Assembly: GCA_010093995.1 (NCBI GenBank)
Contig: ML992507.1
Location: forward strand, 202,781-266,780
Origin: Elsinoe ampelina
Lineage: Eukaryota
DNA: 64,000 bases
Reading direction: 5' to 3'
Position numbers and translations under genes: made by a program
In this document: positions 44,238-50,400 of the stretch, in pieces
Layout of the letters: each line of letters starts with the position of its first letter
Numbering within the stretch: the stretch's first letter is position 1
Notes under the pieces: generated by a model
Databases searched by the model: none
Told to the model about the DNA's origin: nothing
What the model saw: only the letters and a program-made list of their open reading frames with translations

Positions 44238-46504
44238 CTAAACATACCCCCTCTCCGCAAAACTCGCAATCATCCCCTCCGGCGTCGCCTCATACTCCCT
44301 CAACCCCACCTTCCCACCCTCCTCCAACACCGTGTTCGCCTGCACATACACCTTCCGCGGCTGCGCCCTCCTGAGCACCTCCGGCCTGACCTTCTCCGCG
44401 AACCACTCATCCACCGCGGTGATGCCTTCATACAACTCCTTCCCCGCCTTCAGATCCGCAGTCGCTTTATACACCTGCAGTTTCTGCAAAAACCCCTCCA
44501 CCGCCGGGCGTCCATGGGTGGGGATCTTCGCCGCGTCGATACGGATAGTCAGGTCAGCGATGCTCCCGTCCGCGTTGGCCTTGTGGTCCAAACGGATAAA
44601 CTCCTCGCCCGCCGACAGGAAGACTTTCAGTATAGCGTGGCGCGCCTGCATGTGCGCCTGGCCCCACTTCCGGCTCGTGGGGTCCCAGAACTGGAGCGCC
44701 GCGATGCCGGCGCGGGCCATCTGGAGGTACGCGGCGTGCAGCACCTGGCCTGCGGGGGAGGAGGGGTCTTCTGTGCCGTCGCCTAGCCCGAAGATGGAGA
44801 GGATGCCGTAGTCGCAGCTCAGCGCCATGGCGACGCATTCGGCGCGGCATTCTTCGTAGCTGGGGCCGAGGCCGCCGAAGACGCTGCCCCATGTTTCGCC
44901 CGGTTTGTACCAGGTCGTGATGGGTTTGTTGGTGATGGGGCTGGTGGGAGGGTTGTTGACGTCGAAATTGTACTTTCCCGGTTCCGTCTCTTGGAGTAGC
45001 TTACCACAGCCGTGACCTAGAAGTTCGTGCAGACCGACCTGCACTTCGAACGCCTGGTCGCTGTACTTCTTGTACATGGCCATGTCTTCGTCGCTGATAA
45101 AGGGGACTTTTTCGTCGGGTGGCTTTGCGCTGAGAACGTTGCCTAGGCTGACATTCTTGAAGCCTTCGGTTTGGCGGATGCTGTCGTAGTTGGGGATGTT
45201 GATGCCGGCGGGAATACCGGACCCGGCAAAGGTCAAGACTTCCAGACTCGTAAAGTCGGGGGACAAGAACTTGTCCTTCTCAAAGTCGGCAGACCATGGT
45301 AGTTTTGGGATCTGAGAGGGTGCAGACTCGACCAGCTTTCCAAAAGCCTTTGTTCGTTCCTTGTTGACCATGGCTGCGAACCCCTCCCACTCGCCTCTGA
45401 TACCGTGAGGATCACGATACGTCTCGATGAATCCGATATTGCACTCCACGTTCGGTCCCTTGTCCCGGATCCAGTGACGCTGAGAATCAAGATGCGCCTC
45501 CATCGACCCAGTCGAGAAAGTCTTGACGTACTCGGCCTGCATCTTCGCCTCGTGGTCATTCGCAGCATTCTTCTCCGCCTCTGCCAGATTCTCCGCGATC
45601 TTCGCCATCTCAACCTGATGGTCGCCGTACACCAACTTGAGCGTCTTTCCCGCCAGTTGCCCCTCGAGCTTCCACTCAGTCTGCTTCACGTCCCGATCCT
45701 TCTCATCCGGCGAGGTTTGACCAGACGCAATCAGCAGTTCAAAGTTCCCGTCGTTCGTCTTCTTCAGACGAGTGTTCTCGGGCAGTAGACCTGGTTCTTT
45801 GAGCAGTGTGGCTATAGTCTCGATCTCCTCGGCAGTAATGTCCGGTGAGTCGGGGTAGTAGGTCGACAAATGCCCCTTGTCCGGGTAGCCAAGGTGCATG
45901 CCCCCGGCACTGCTTGTCTCGTACAAAGCCGGTGCACCACCAGCAGCTCCGAGGTGCTTCGCTGCATCAGCGTCTGTCTGGGCGAGGGCGATGAGCTTTT
46001 CTGGAGCCAGACGTGGGATGAACTTGGAGTCGCCAAAGGACTTGTAGTTGCCACCGTTGCCTAGGAATTGGGCCGCGTAGCTGAGGTAGTGCTTGAGGTC
46101 TTCATCGTTCAGGTCAGCCTTCTTTGCGAGGGCTTTGTAGTCGCCTGGTAGTTGTCAGTTTCATGTTTGCGGTCGTGTGATCAAGAGTGACTCTCACCGC
46201 CAGCTGCCTTGTGGAGGGCAATGATAAAGTCGTATATGGGCTCAGATTCAGGGGAGACTTGGCGCAGCACTATCCTTGTGCCACTGAAAGCTGCGCGGCT
46301 GATATAGTGGGCATATCTCTGCTCCTTGGGGGTGAGAGCTTCAAAGTGTGGCTTGATCGAAAGTGGCACGATGGTGGGAGGGTCGTCCGCGAGATACTGC
46401 TGTCGGGTGGATGCATCCATGTTGTGGAGATGCATCTTGGGAATCACGAGTGATGTGACCTTGGGTGTTCGTAAAAGGACACGCTGCAGGGTTCGTGCGA
46501 ACAT
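44238..46504 (-). CDS. Dipeptidyl peptidase III (M49 metallopeptidase); alternative in-frame starts at 46504 and 46420
   Basis: HELLGH and EECRAE zinc motifs, GFIETYRDP, AGINIPNYD; intron ~46196..46146; typical N-terminus MDASTRQQYLADDPPT at 46420. Confidence 0.93.
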
Positions 46505-46538
46505 ATACTGATCACGCCAGCAAGCAGGCAACAAAATG

Positions 46539-47218
46539 GGTATCGTTTATAGGAGTACCAAGTTCCAAACTTTAAAATTTTTAGCGTATTGCTTGGCGGG
46601 CTAAATCCAGCCAATTTGTTAATAAAAAACCCTAGCTACAATTCTTACCTACCTCTTACGTCATAAGATTCCCTCGGTTAGACTTTCTATTTTATTATAT
46701 AATCATTTTCTTACGTAGCAAATTTAGCCGAGCATAGCCTATCGTCGCCTATCGTAGCTAAATGTAGCTATGTTCTTGCGCATGTTGAAGCTCTAATTCT
46801 GATAGATTATACATTTAAATTTTCGGCGCGCTAAATCTGGGCGCCGTGGCTTAGTGGGTAGCAACTTTTTGCACGTCTACTAATTTCTATGCGCCTTAAC
46901 CTCTACGTCCTAAAGGTTCTAGGTTCAACTCCCGACCGTGTCAATTATTATATACAGTCTTTTTCTACTTAATTTACTCGAGGTAGTAAATCTAACCGAG
47001 GTCTTTTACTTAGTTAGAGCTATATATCTAGCCGAGGTAAGTTAATAGTCGAGGTAGCTCTATAACCGAGGTAACTTAATAACTAAGATTACAATTATAA
47101 AGACATATATAAACCAAAATCAGGCAAATTACATATAATTTGGCTGACGCACGCCAACTTAAAGTTCGGCCAAGTCTAAAATAAGCTTTGCAAACTTGGT
47201 ACCCCTATAAACGATACC
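46539..47218. mobile_element. Non-autonomous DNA transposon (MITE-like), 680 bp, 26-bp TIRs, 8-bp TSD
   Basis: Left end GGTATCGTTTATAGGAGTACCAAGTT (46539-46564) matches the reverse complement of the right end GGTATCGTTTATAGGGGTACCAAGTT (47193-47218) at 25/26. Flanked by ACAAAATG at 46531-46538 and 47219-47226. AT/TpA-rich interior with no ORF. Confidence 0.93.
46840..46943 (+). pseudogene. Degenerate tRNA-like Pol III unit inside the MITE; anticodon not assignable
   Basis: Acceptor-like stem GGCGCCG/CCGTGTC-A (6 of 7 pairs, including G-U); A box TGGCTTAGTGG 46847-46857; B box GGTTCAACTCC 46922-46932; T5 at 46960-46964. Anticodon arm disrupted, with ~30 nt extra and an internal T5. Confidence 0.7.
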
Positions 47219-47439
47219 ACAAAATGGAGGGGCAAAGGGGAGCGGCTGGCCGCGGGGTTGTTCGGGAAATGCACTAGTCCTGATTAGGGCATATCTGAAT
47301 GGCAGCATCAAGAATAAGGTAGCCACGAAATTGCGTTGTGAATGTTTGAACATATTTCTCTGTTTGTCCTACATCTCTCGGGCTAGTCCCAAGACCATCA
47401 AGAATCCTCGCCATGCTAGCTATGCGATGCCAGACCTAC

Positions 47440-50400
47440 TCATCCATAAATCTCCCAGATCCCCGAACTCCTCCTTTCCTCCTTATTCCCCCGCCGCTCC
47501 CTCTTCCTTCCCTGCTCATTCAACTTCAACATCGTCTTGCTCACCTCGGCAAACATAACAACCAGCTCCTTCATCCTTCCACTATCCACAAACGCCTGCG
47601 CAACTCCACTGCTCTCCTCGCCTGCAACAGCATTCGCGACCTCCATGGCGATGACCAGCTCGTCTCTGCTAACCATGTGGCCCGCTGTGCAGAGCGCCGA
47701 GACGTAAGCCAGGATAATTTCCGGTAGGTAGAGGGATTTGATCTTCTTGAAAAGGGCGGCTTCTTCTTCGTCTTGGGAAGTGACGAGGATGCCGGCGAGG
47801 AGAGGCTCGACAGCGGCTTGGACTTCTTCGATTGACTTGCGGATCTTGGTCGGCGTGGTGTTTGGGCGAGGAAGCTTGGTGGCAAACTCGTTGGAGACTT
47901 TCGACCAGGAAATCAGCGCTTGGACTGCTCGACAGAGGAGAGAGACGTCGTAGTAGGTCTGAGCTTCGGATTGCATTCGATGGAGTTTCGGGGCGAGGGT
48001 TGGGGAGCTGGTCTCGATCATGGCATTGTGCTCTGGGTTGGCGATGTTGATCGGACGTCCGACGATGGACTTTGACTTGCCTAGGGATAGCTGTTCGAAC
48101 AAGATCTCGCTTGTTAGAACTAGCGCCGCGGGAAAGTTGCCGTTTGCTGCACACGGTCAGTGCATGTTGAATGTCAAGCAAATGAAGAACTTACCTAGCA
48201 GCTTGCTGCAAGCCGACGCAAGAGCAGAGAACGTAACAGTCCAGTGTCCCTCCACCAGATGAAAAATGGAAAGACCAGAAATAAGCCCTTCCTCGTCCTC
48301 GGTAAGATCAGTCGAGATGTCGGCGACCTTGATGCGCTTCCCAGGGAAGAGGTCATCCTTGGTGGGCTCAAGAAGTTCCAGTGGTTGCTTGGCTGCGTTC
48401 GACGATGCAAGCACACGATCGAGCTGATAGATATACTGTCCTTTGATGACAGCAATAGCATCGATACCGTACCTATTCATGATCTTGATGAACATCTGGC
48501 TGTCCTCCGCATCCTGATCGTCTGCCATTACTTGAGACAAGGAATCAATGCATCTCTCCTCTGCCATGAGCGAGCCATACATTGGTGTCAGGTCTCGCTT
48601 GCCAGTGACGCGTAATAGCTGTATATAGCCCGCGATGACATTGTCGAGCTCGTCACTGCATGACTCTGAGAAGTGCGATTGGTCCAGTGCTCGCAGGATG
48701 ATCAACGTGTGCGAAATAGTCCTTAGGGCATCTGGGTCGTCGCTGATAACAGCTTCATCTGGTGATCCTCTCCCATCCTTCATTTTCGTGCGGTGTACCG
48801 GCCTGATGACCGTGGATGGCTCATCCTTCCACGCAGTCTCAGCGATAGCACATCCAACATTCCTGCACAAATCGCCGACGGTGCCCCCAATCAGGCTTGC
48901 CTGAAGCAGCTTGAATGGATTGTGAAGCTCCTTGCTCAGTGATGGCATCTTGGCTAGGTTCGCGACCAGTGACTTTGGCGACTGCAGAAGGTTGTTCGTT
49001 GCGTCCGTACCCACTCCATGTTTGCGCACCAGGTCCAATGGCAGCTGCAGCGGAACAAATTGCAGCACAAAGTTGTCGTACTGCGCCAGAAGCTGAGCGT
49101 TGTAATGCGCAAAAGCGTGGTCGTTCCAAGTCCGACAGACACGCTTGACAGAATCCAGATCACCACCCAGTAGTCCATACACCGCTGCCTCGAACTCGTC
49201 TGATGTACCCGTCCGGGCTGCGATCAGACACATTCTTCTCCAGAGTGCTCCCTTTGCCGGGCCAGCTGAGCCAACAGGCAATTTGTGCGCAGCTGCAATG
49301 CCTAAGCTTGCTGCCCTCCAGTCTTGATTCCTCTGAGAGATCCATTCGCAGACTTCTTCCCATGTCTGGCCCTTCCTCAACATCCAGAAACAAGCCTTCC
49401 ACAGATCCCTTTCCTTGATCTGATCGCCCTTCTCCAAAGCCTTGCCCTGTCTGCTCACAGCATCCGGATCAAGCTGAGTGACCAGCACCTCCTTTCCACT
49501 CCTCACCTCAAAGTCACCCTCGGCATTAATCCTCATCCTCTTCGCGCCCTTGATCCTCTCCCTCGTCTCCATCCAGCCATTCACCCACACCTCCTTGCTC
49601 TTGCCCTCCTCTTCATCCCCACCAGCCTGCTCTAGCCACTTCAACACCAAATGCCTCTCCCTCGCCACATCATCCCCAAGGACAAAACCCTGCCACACCT
49701 CCTCTGGCTTCGAATACCGACACACCTCTCCCAAGCTCCTCAACCTTTCTTCCCTCTCCTGTGCCTCGCCATCACTGGGGTACCTCGCCATCAACACCAC
49801 CTTCACCAGATCCCACGTATCCGCCTCAGCAACCCACCTCTTGACCTCCTTCCCCTCCTTCCTCATCCCATACTGCCCTTGTCTCAGCCCCTTTGCCTTT
49901 CCCTCCTGCCTCAACCGCCGGACCTCATCGACAGCATAGTCCCGATACCGCGTCACCAGCTCCAGTGCAGCGTCCCTCGCTTCTCCCCCAGAATGTAAGC
50001 GGGTGTGGAACTGATCCAGCGTTTCGGCGAAGACGTCCACTTCCTTGCCAACGCGGGTGGCGATGCTCGCTAGATCCGAGACGTCGATGTCGTCGTCCTC
50101 GTCTATGTCCGTCTCGGGCCGGTCCTGGGCATACTCTTCCTCGGCGTCATGTTGGGTTTGTGTGCGTTTGCCCAGCGACGCGAACGGGTTGGCAGCGGCT
50201 GTGGTGGGCTGGAGTTGCGTGAAGAAAGTGCTGCTTACACTGGTGCTGCTGGGGCCGAGGGAACGGGGTTTGAAGAGCTGGGAGGTGGTGGATTGCGGGC
50301 CGATGAGATCGTCAGCGGAGTCGGACTCGGAGTCGCTGGAGAGGTCGAGGGGGCGGGAGGTTTGGCGCTGCTGTGTATCAGTTCATGGTCTTTGGGAGTG

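Follow-up and report, generated by a model that had tools for sequence, protein, structure and literature searches.

Within a 64,000-nucleotide stretch of the Elsinoe ampelina genome (GenBank assembly GCA_010093995.1, contig ML992507.1, positions 202,781 to 266,780; hereafter the window, numbered from its first base), a 680-bp element at 46539–47218 carries a decayed tRNA-like segment between two terminal inverted repeats (TIRs). We read this element, with a probability of roughly 0.6, as a low-copy miniature inverted-repeat transposable element (MITE) that transduplicated a gene of the tRNA-Thr(AGU) type, decayed in a manner resembling repeat-induced point mutation (RIP) and now donates a Pol II promoter and an exon. 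A preliminary description of this DNA had proposed a MITE family that captured a tRNA gene and spreads Pol III promoters or insulators around the genome. Its observations were confirmed and its interpretation is partly supported: the element is a two-copy carrier of a decayed pseudogene, not a spreader of working Pol III units.

The element (+ strand) has 26-nt TIRs at 46539–46564 (left, +) and 47193–47218 (right, −), whose arms are complementary at 25 of 26 positions (96%) in an inverted-repeat scan. Immediately outside the TIRs lies a direct repeat, ACAAAATG, at 46531–46538 and again at 47219–47226, which we take as the target-site duplication (TSD). Contigs of the DNA run X1 gave the same limits. 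The contig graph breaks exactly at both element ends, one contig is 680 nt long and spans 46539–47218, and the two flank contigs belonging to this window end 30 nt inside the TIRs. Two more flank contigs, one left and one right, adjoin the same two element ends, and their loose ends carry a different 8-bp repeat, CGACAGGC, before and behind the element. Two copies with different TSDs are collapsed into the single 680-nt contig, and the second TSD at the second flank pair implies that the 680 bp transposed as a unit at least once. The repeat scan and the 680-nt contig bear out the cleanly bounded element, with its 25/26 TIR match and 8-bp TSD, that the preliminary description had reported. The shared contig also answers a question raised there, namely whether other copies hold the central cassette: it is present in both.

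The depth of the element contig in X1 was 374, compared with 150–164 for the four flank contigs, which is compatible with a collapsed repeat; contig depth is not a copy number, and the count of two copies comes from the flank pairs. The element has TIRs at both ends, a TSD of fixed length that differs between insertions, a small size and no transposase (no open reading frame of at least 80 amino acids lies within it), all features of a MITE. The high copy number of MITEs was not found: there are two flank pairs in X1, one copy within the window and 0 matches in a TIR scan of metagenome contigs. These counts argue against a spreading family of Pol III promoters; the part of the original proposal that stands is a mobile TIR unit with a tRNA-derived core. 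A TIR 15-mer had no match in a literature text search. No contig joining 46538 to 47227, the empty site, was present in any run, which does not by itself show the insertion to be fixed.

The length of the TSD deserves comment. The repeat ACAAAATG extends by one more base, a G, leaving 8 and 9 bp formally ambiguous, and in both copies the right TSD is followed by a G, which is also the first base of the element. We preferred the 8-bp reading because only 8 bp yields symmetric termini. An 8-bp TSD is the length found in hAT transposons.

The central stretch at 46840–46943 (+) is, judged from its sequence, tRNA-derived. It comprises a tRNA-Thr(AGU)-type 5′ end and a 50-nt non-canonical middle, and it was recognised by an Rfam alignment, by its geometry and by a primer match. 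The A box, TGGCTTAGTGG (46847–46857, +), agrees exactly with the consensus and is the sole exact match on both strands of the window. The B box, GGTTCAACTCC (46922–46932, +), has one mismatch and is the sole + strand match with at most one mismatch in the window, with none on the − strand. Both consensus strings are the textbook ones. The B-box mismatch is a G>A change at a position occupied by a purine in tRNAs. The boxes lie 64 nt apart, and an acceptor stem (GGCGCCG/CCGTGTC) with 6 of 7 pairs, two of them G:U, stands in exact tRNA register before the A box and after the T arm (CTAGG-TTCAACT-CCCGA), as is expected of a tRNA gene. The discriminator A is at 46943. A run of five T (T5) at 46960–46964 (+) follows 16 nt past the discriminator, and a further T5 run at 46866–46870 (+) lies inside the segment, between the two boxes. 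The A box, B box, acceptor-like stem, discriminator A and downstream T5 are therefore all present as the preliminary description had them. Combining the boxes with the acceptor geometry gave 0 matches in 5.12 Mb of Markov-1 simulated sequence. A loose version of this test (up to 2 mismatches per box, at least 4 acceptor pairs) gave 3 matches in the window and 129 in 5.12 Mb of simulated sequence and was discarded as not discriminating.

In an Rfam search of 146 bases, the tRNA family RF00005 aligned end-to-end (model positions 1–71) to exactly 46840–46943, with the anticodon arm replaced by a 50-nt insert. The score was 14.2 bits, compared with a gathering score of 29, and E was 1.6 for 146 nt on two strands and 4227 families. 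By our own arithmetic this rescales to ~4e-4 for the tRNA family alone on the stretch, ~2e-3 on the element and ~0.17 on the window. No tRNA was listed when 951 bases were searched at E ≤ 10, and no tRNA match at the gathering threshold was obtained in the 64-kb window. ARAGORN at default settings found no tRNA in the window or in the core, and at relaxed settings it called the same span as Ala(TGC) with a 30-nt intron. The segment passes ARAGORN at 87% of the threshold or lower, a level that 1 to 6 out of 5000 shuffled versions of these 104 nt attain. As genome-wide evidence the relaxed setting was set aside for lack of specificity: the window had 19, 64 and 113 matches at ps90, ps85 and ps80, and 1.02 Mb of shuffled elements had 33, 324 and 1586 at the same levels.

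The 5′ end of the segment points to a particular parent. In a literature text search its first 15 bases turned up in one paper, a preprint (bioRxiv 10.1101/554634), as the start of a forward primer of 17 bases for fly tRNA-Thr(AGT); 46840–46855 is identical to 16 of those 17 bases. This identity favours a parent of the Thr(AGU) type over an Ala one. One transversion presumably separates the heptamer at 46877–46883 from the anticodon loop of the same tRNA-Thr.

The segment is best described as a pseudogene, predicted to be unable to make a tRNA and to be a poor Pol III unit. Its covariance score (14.2 bits) stays below the gathering score. The minimum-free-energy fold is not a cloverleaf (z = −1.27; 24 of 200 shuffles fold at least as well), and a cloverleaf with an anticodon arm was not found. 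The + strand of the element contains three T5 runs. The internal run at 46866–46870 equals the proposed terminator at 46960–46964 in length and should therefore have the same terminating power, whatever that is; a Pol III unit would be expected to have no such run before its intended end. The internal T5, the lack of a recognisable anticodon arm and the non-cloverleaf fold had escaped the preliminary description, and its working Pol III unit finds no support, given the T5 between the boxes, the sub-gathering Rfam score, the missing cloverleaf and the spliced read-through RNA described below.

Transcripts from the element came from three runs. In the neighbouring gene for a peptidase of family M49, a spliced joint of 53 nt is present in X3, X4 and X6 and missing in X1, so we treated the former three runs as RNA-derived; this status comes solely from spliced joints, there being no RNA label on record. 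A 765-nt contig of X3 covers 46846–47036 and, after a skip of 66 nt, the rest of the element up to 47218; its remaining 458 nt belong to the flank of the other copy. Two runs that stem from different studies, X4 and X6, each have a 174-nt contig covering 46864–47036, without loose 5′ letters; we rated the absence of a loose end at 46864 as a weak hint of a real end. Together these contigs define a first exon-like block at 46846–47036 (+), an intron of 66 nt at 47037–47102 (+; GTAAGT...AG) and a second exon-like block at 47103–47218 (+) that runs through the right TIR into the flank. The joint in X3 was placed at 47034>47101, skips 66 nt and becomes GT..AG with the cut at +2. Contigs of low depth (2.4–2.9) in X4 and X6 bridge 47218 into the flank of this window. 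X3 has no contig cover over 46488–46792, 47037–47097 and 47220–47402 and gives no evidence either way there.

The element RNAs read through both T5 runs (46866–46870 and 46960–46964), and the spliced exons contain no coding frame, with stops in all three frames. Read-through, splicing and stops in all frames point to a non-coding Pol II-type product, and the spliced + strand transcript fits Pol II better than Pol III. Its start site probably lies within ~46846–46864. A TATA-like heptamer, TATACAT (46808–46814, +), precedes the RNA contig starts by 32–56 bp. In the other copy position 46812 is T, a C>T change in CpA context that yields a consensus-type TATA (TATATAT). This heptamer may serve as the promoter, and the change at 46812 may aid expression of the other copy.

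The base composition of the element suggests a history of RIP. The TA/AT ratio is 1.55 in the element and 0.52–0.57 in the flanks, and the (CA+TG)/(AC+GT) ratio is 0.625 compared with 1.32–1.46. At 37% GC the element is the lowest in the window, with flanks at 54–55%, and the 1-kb bin 46001–47000 has the lowest GC among 64 bins. The preliminary description had attributed most stem defects to transitions, and in part this agrees with our analysis: both T-stem mismatches are explicable by G>A, and a C>T or G>A change can account for each of the two acceptor G:U pairs. The two copies differ at six sites (five transitions and one transversion), which cluster at 46796–46839: 46796 A>G, 46799 C>T, 46812 C>T, 46824 C>T, 46826 G>T and 46839 G>A. 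Two of the six are in CpA/TpG context. Since only these six inter-copy differences are known, most of the decay would be older than the last transposition. All six are confined to a 44-bp interval immediately 5′ of both the tRNA-like stretch and the RNA contig starts; along the contig path the other 636 bp have none. This clustering could reflect local RIP, a gene-conversion tract or an artefact of path choice by the assembler.

The arms of the element extend beyond the TIRs. Inverted similarity between them persists patchily to ~90 nt from each end. A subterminal inverted repeat of 18 nt at 46672–46689 (−) is 89% complementary to 46984–47001 and holds the sole CGAGG motif of the left arm, as CCTCG. 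The right arm has five (C/T)CGAGGT motifs at 46978–47073 (+), ~17–18 bp apart in three of four steps, and a family of tandem direct repeats with a spacing of 17 lies within this array. These motifs are candidate subterminal repeats for transposase binding. The asymmetric core between the arms, ~46690–46983, holds the tRNA-like stretch.

We propose the following history. A transposase encoded elsewhere would mobilise the element in trans. It would recognise the TIRs of 26 bp, probably together with the subterminal (C/T)CGAGGT motifs, and make an 8-bp staggered cut; by TSD length this enzyme is predicted to be hAT-like. The core at ~46690–46983 would be host DNA that included a gene of the tRNA-Thr(AGU) type along with its 5′ flank and its trailer. 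The most likely route of acquisition is transduplication, a DNA-level process in which the template is switched while a gap is repaired. We favour DNA-level capture over a complementary DNA (cDNA) because the segment has no CCA end, contains an intron-sized insert and is followed by a T run 16 nt after the discriminator. The contig common to both copies has this apparently host-derived sequence between the TIRs, copied along with the element. Indels and RIP-like changes, C>T and G>A, would then have turned the captured gene into a pseudogene. Today the element is transcribed on the + strand, apparently from ~46846–46864, a start inside the tRNA-like stretch with the TATA-like motif upstream of it. 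The transcript is spliced and non-coding and exits through the right TIR into adjacent DNA. Such an element would be a small mobile donor of a Pol II promoter and an exon.

Several points weigh against this history. The box consensus strings and the geometry statistic were chosen after the sequence had been seen. The anticodon arm is unrecognisable, and relaxed ARAGORN, an unspecific setting, names the segment Ala(TGC) and not Thr. The Thr assignment hangs on 16 bases of a single insect primer. Reversal of the presumed RIP also failed. None of 19,683 variants, covering all combinations of TpA reverted to CpA or TpG, passed ARAGORN at default settings. Even the best-case reversion of six transitions, along the lines of the preliminary description, attained only 98% of the threshold; by its design this second test is circular, and it lacks a matched control. 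A metagenome scan with a de-RIP-tolerant pattern of the 5′ half (Y/R at RIP sites) found 94 loci, 0 of which are tRNAs by ARAGORN; all 94 are GC-rich sequences that fit the degenerate pattern. The low GC could be intrinsic to the element rather than due to RIP. As for the transcript, contigs cannot define RNA starts, and the splice occurs in one contig only (X3), which derives from the other copy and not from the one in this window. A 9-bp, Mutator-like TSD is possible, the ninth base being G at both copies. The termini GGTAT...ATACC misfit the hAT terminal consensus.

Other origins of the cassette were weighed against the same evidence. The tRNA-like stretch may be ancestral, the 680-bp element being an internal deletion of an autonomous element whose promoter or 5′ leader held it. 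This would account for RNA-type contigs that begin within the tRNA-like stretch, ~300 bp from the left end, for a canonical intron, as expected of the stump of a transposase transcription unit, and for arms that are symmetric for only ~90 bp. We nevertheless regard it as unlikely: no autonomous relative or hAT transposase was found within the window, the metagenome contigs gave no TIR match, the spliced exons have stops in all frames and no coding remnant, and the capture event is merely shifted to an earlier time. It is more improbable still that a tRNA-derived short interspersed nuclear element (SINE) retrotransposed into an existing MITE and the composite then moved as a unit. SINEs are usually recognised by a tRNA-type head containing A and B boxes, one with a tRNA-Ser head has been recorded from a fungus (PMC3538342), and a 7-bp repeat, TAAATCT, occurs at 46832–46838 and 46987–46993. 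A shared 7-mer in these flanks arises, however, in 422 of 5000 shuffles, and the downstream TAAATCT lies partly within the symmetric arm of the element itself (the 18-nt inverted repeat at 46984–47001). There is no A-rich or simple-repeat tail ahead of it, and two T5 runs inside the putative SINE would halt its Pol III transcript. With neither a TSD of its own nor a 3′ tail around the tRNA-headed unit, the nested SINE that had been offered as an alternative to capture finds little support.

A working Pol III or TFIIIC module, distributed by the transposon as a promoter or chromatin boundary, is in our view very improbable. The A and B boxes match the consensus, lie 64 nt apart and are identical in both copies; TFIIIC binding requires the boxes only, and Pol II-type contigs that begin right at the cassette would fit a patch of open chromatin. 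Set against this are the two flank pairs, all that was seen of a distributed module, the T5 between the boxes that equals the supposed terminator in length, and RNA-type contigs that are spliced and pass both T5 runs. The identity of the boxes is uninformative on selection, with two copies that differ at six known sites. A related proposal, that the apparently tRNA-derived core binds TFIIIC through its A and B boxes and acts as a portable open-chromatin or boundary module of the tRNA-gene type, seeding the Pol II start at 46846–46864, we consider a long shot. If it were true, a cut-and-paste transposon would deliver a combined TFIIIC site and Pol II promoter beside genes, here 47–89 bp upstream of the ends of the M49 mRNA contigs, with the other copy driving a spliced read-out transcript. 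Hardly credible, finally, is a tRNA resemblance produced by chance in an AT-rich, repeat-laden element. The Rfam score is below half of the gathering score, with ~0.17 tRNA-family matches expected per 64-kb window, relaxed ARAGORN is unspecific, and the fold is not a cloverleaf. Chance would also have to supply a box and acceptor geometry that was absent from all 5.12 Mb of simulated sequence, a 16-base identity with the 5′ end of a real tRNA-Thr, and an end-to-end Rfam alignment at the same coordinates as the ARAGORN call.

The DNA around the element is eukaryotic and fungus-like, with short introns and a RIP-like signature. To the left lies the gene for the M49 peptidase (44238–46500, −; Pfam 1.2e-239), whose 53-nt intron at ~46144–46197 is supported by RNA-type contigs of three runs. 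Its frame is open up to the element edge, with in-frame ATGs at 46504, 46435 and 46420, and its mRNA contigs end at 46450–46492, which is 47–89 bp from the left TIR. To the right lies a Nup84/Nup107 nucleoporin gene (47440–50382, −) in two reading frames: 48157–50382 corresponds to profile positions 2–520 and 47440–48156 to positions 521–717. The split over two frames indicates an intron or a frame change near 48157. The last exon ends near 47440, and in X3 the Nup84 contig has its start at 47412. Were the element absent, only ~240 bp would separate the M49 and Nup84/107 genes. Elsewhere in the window, a dispersed 5S rRNA gene occupies 2577–2696 (+; Rfam RF00001, 85.3 bits, E 9.1e-17, full length) and is the sole Rfam match at the gathering score in the 64 kb. 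The bin with the highest GC (0.644) is 1–1000, at the left edge.

The element belongs to a kind that is already known, the transduplicating non-autonomous DNA transposon. With MITEs that have an 8-bp TSD (hAT-type) it shares its 680-bp size, non-coding content, 26-bp TIRs, subterminal repeats and a TSD that differs between copies. It differs from them in abundance, with two flank pairs seen here and tens to thousands of copies there, and its termini misfit the terminal consensus of hAT. Transduplication by DNA transposons is known from the Pack-MULEs of plants. Such transposons likewise hold host-derived sequence between their TIRs and copy it upon movement, but the cargo here would be a Pol III gene, a tRNA, and not a protein-coding fragment. 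A fungal precedent for such capture is a hAT element of Pyrenophora tritici-repentis that holds a histone H3-like gene (PMC3538342). A literature search on MITEs and DNA transposons with tRNA genes and on transduplication, made at abstract level and excluding subscription journals, Repbase and supplements, found no TIR element with an internal tRNA gene, and a tRNA cargo in a TIR element may be unreported. If the capture is real, it would be a clean fungal case of a DNA transposon acquiring a Pol III gene and carrying it to a new site, and it would extend the known range of transduplication cargo. The element would also be a small case study of a decayed transposable element that donates a Pol II start, a first exon and an intron to adjacent DNA. 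Its practical weight is limited, with two copies seen and the tRNA part dead.

Two further systems bring mobile elements and tRNA genes together. Like tRNA-derived SINEs, the element is short and mobile and contains a tRNA-type head with A and B boxes. SINEs move via RNA and have tails, variable TSDs and no TIRs, whereas the present element is bounded by TIRs and 8-bp TSDs and its tRNA-like part is central and holds a T5 run. Dada DNA transposons insert into tRNA or snRNA genes, with TSDs of 6–7 bp and no TIRs (PMC3706591). They share with the element the physical association of a DNA transposon with tRNA genes. The topology is inverse: in the present case the element encloses the tRNA-like piece and sits in an ordinary intergenic spacer.

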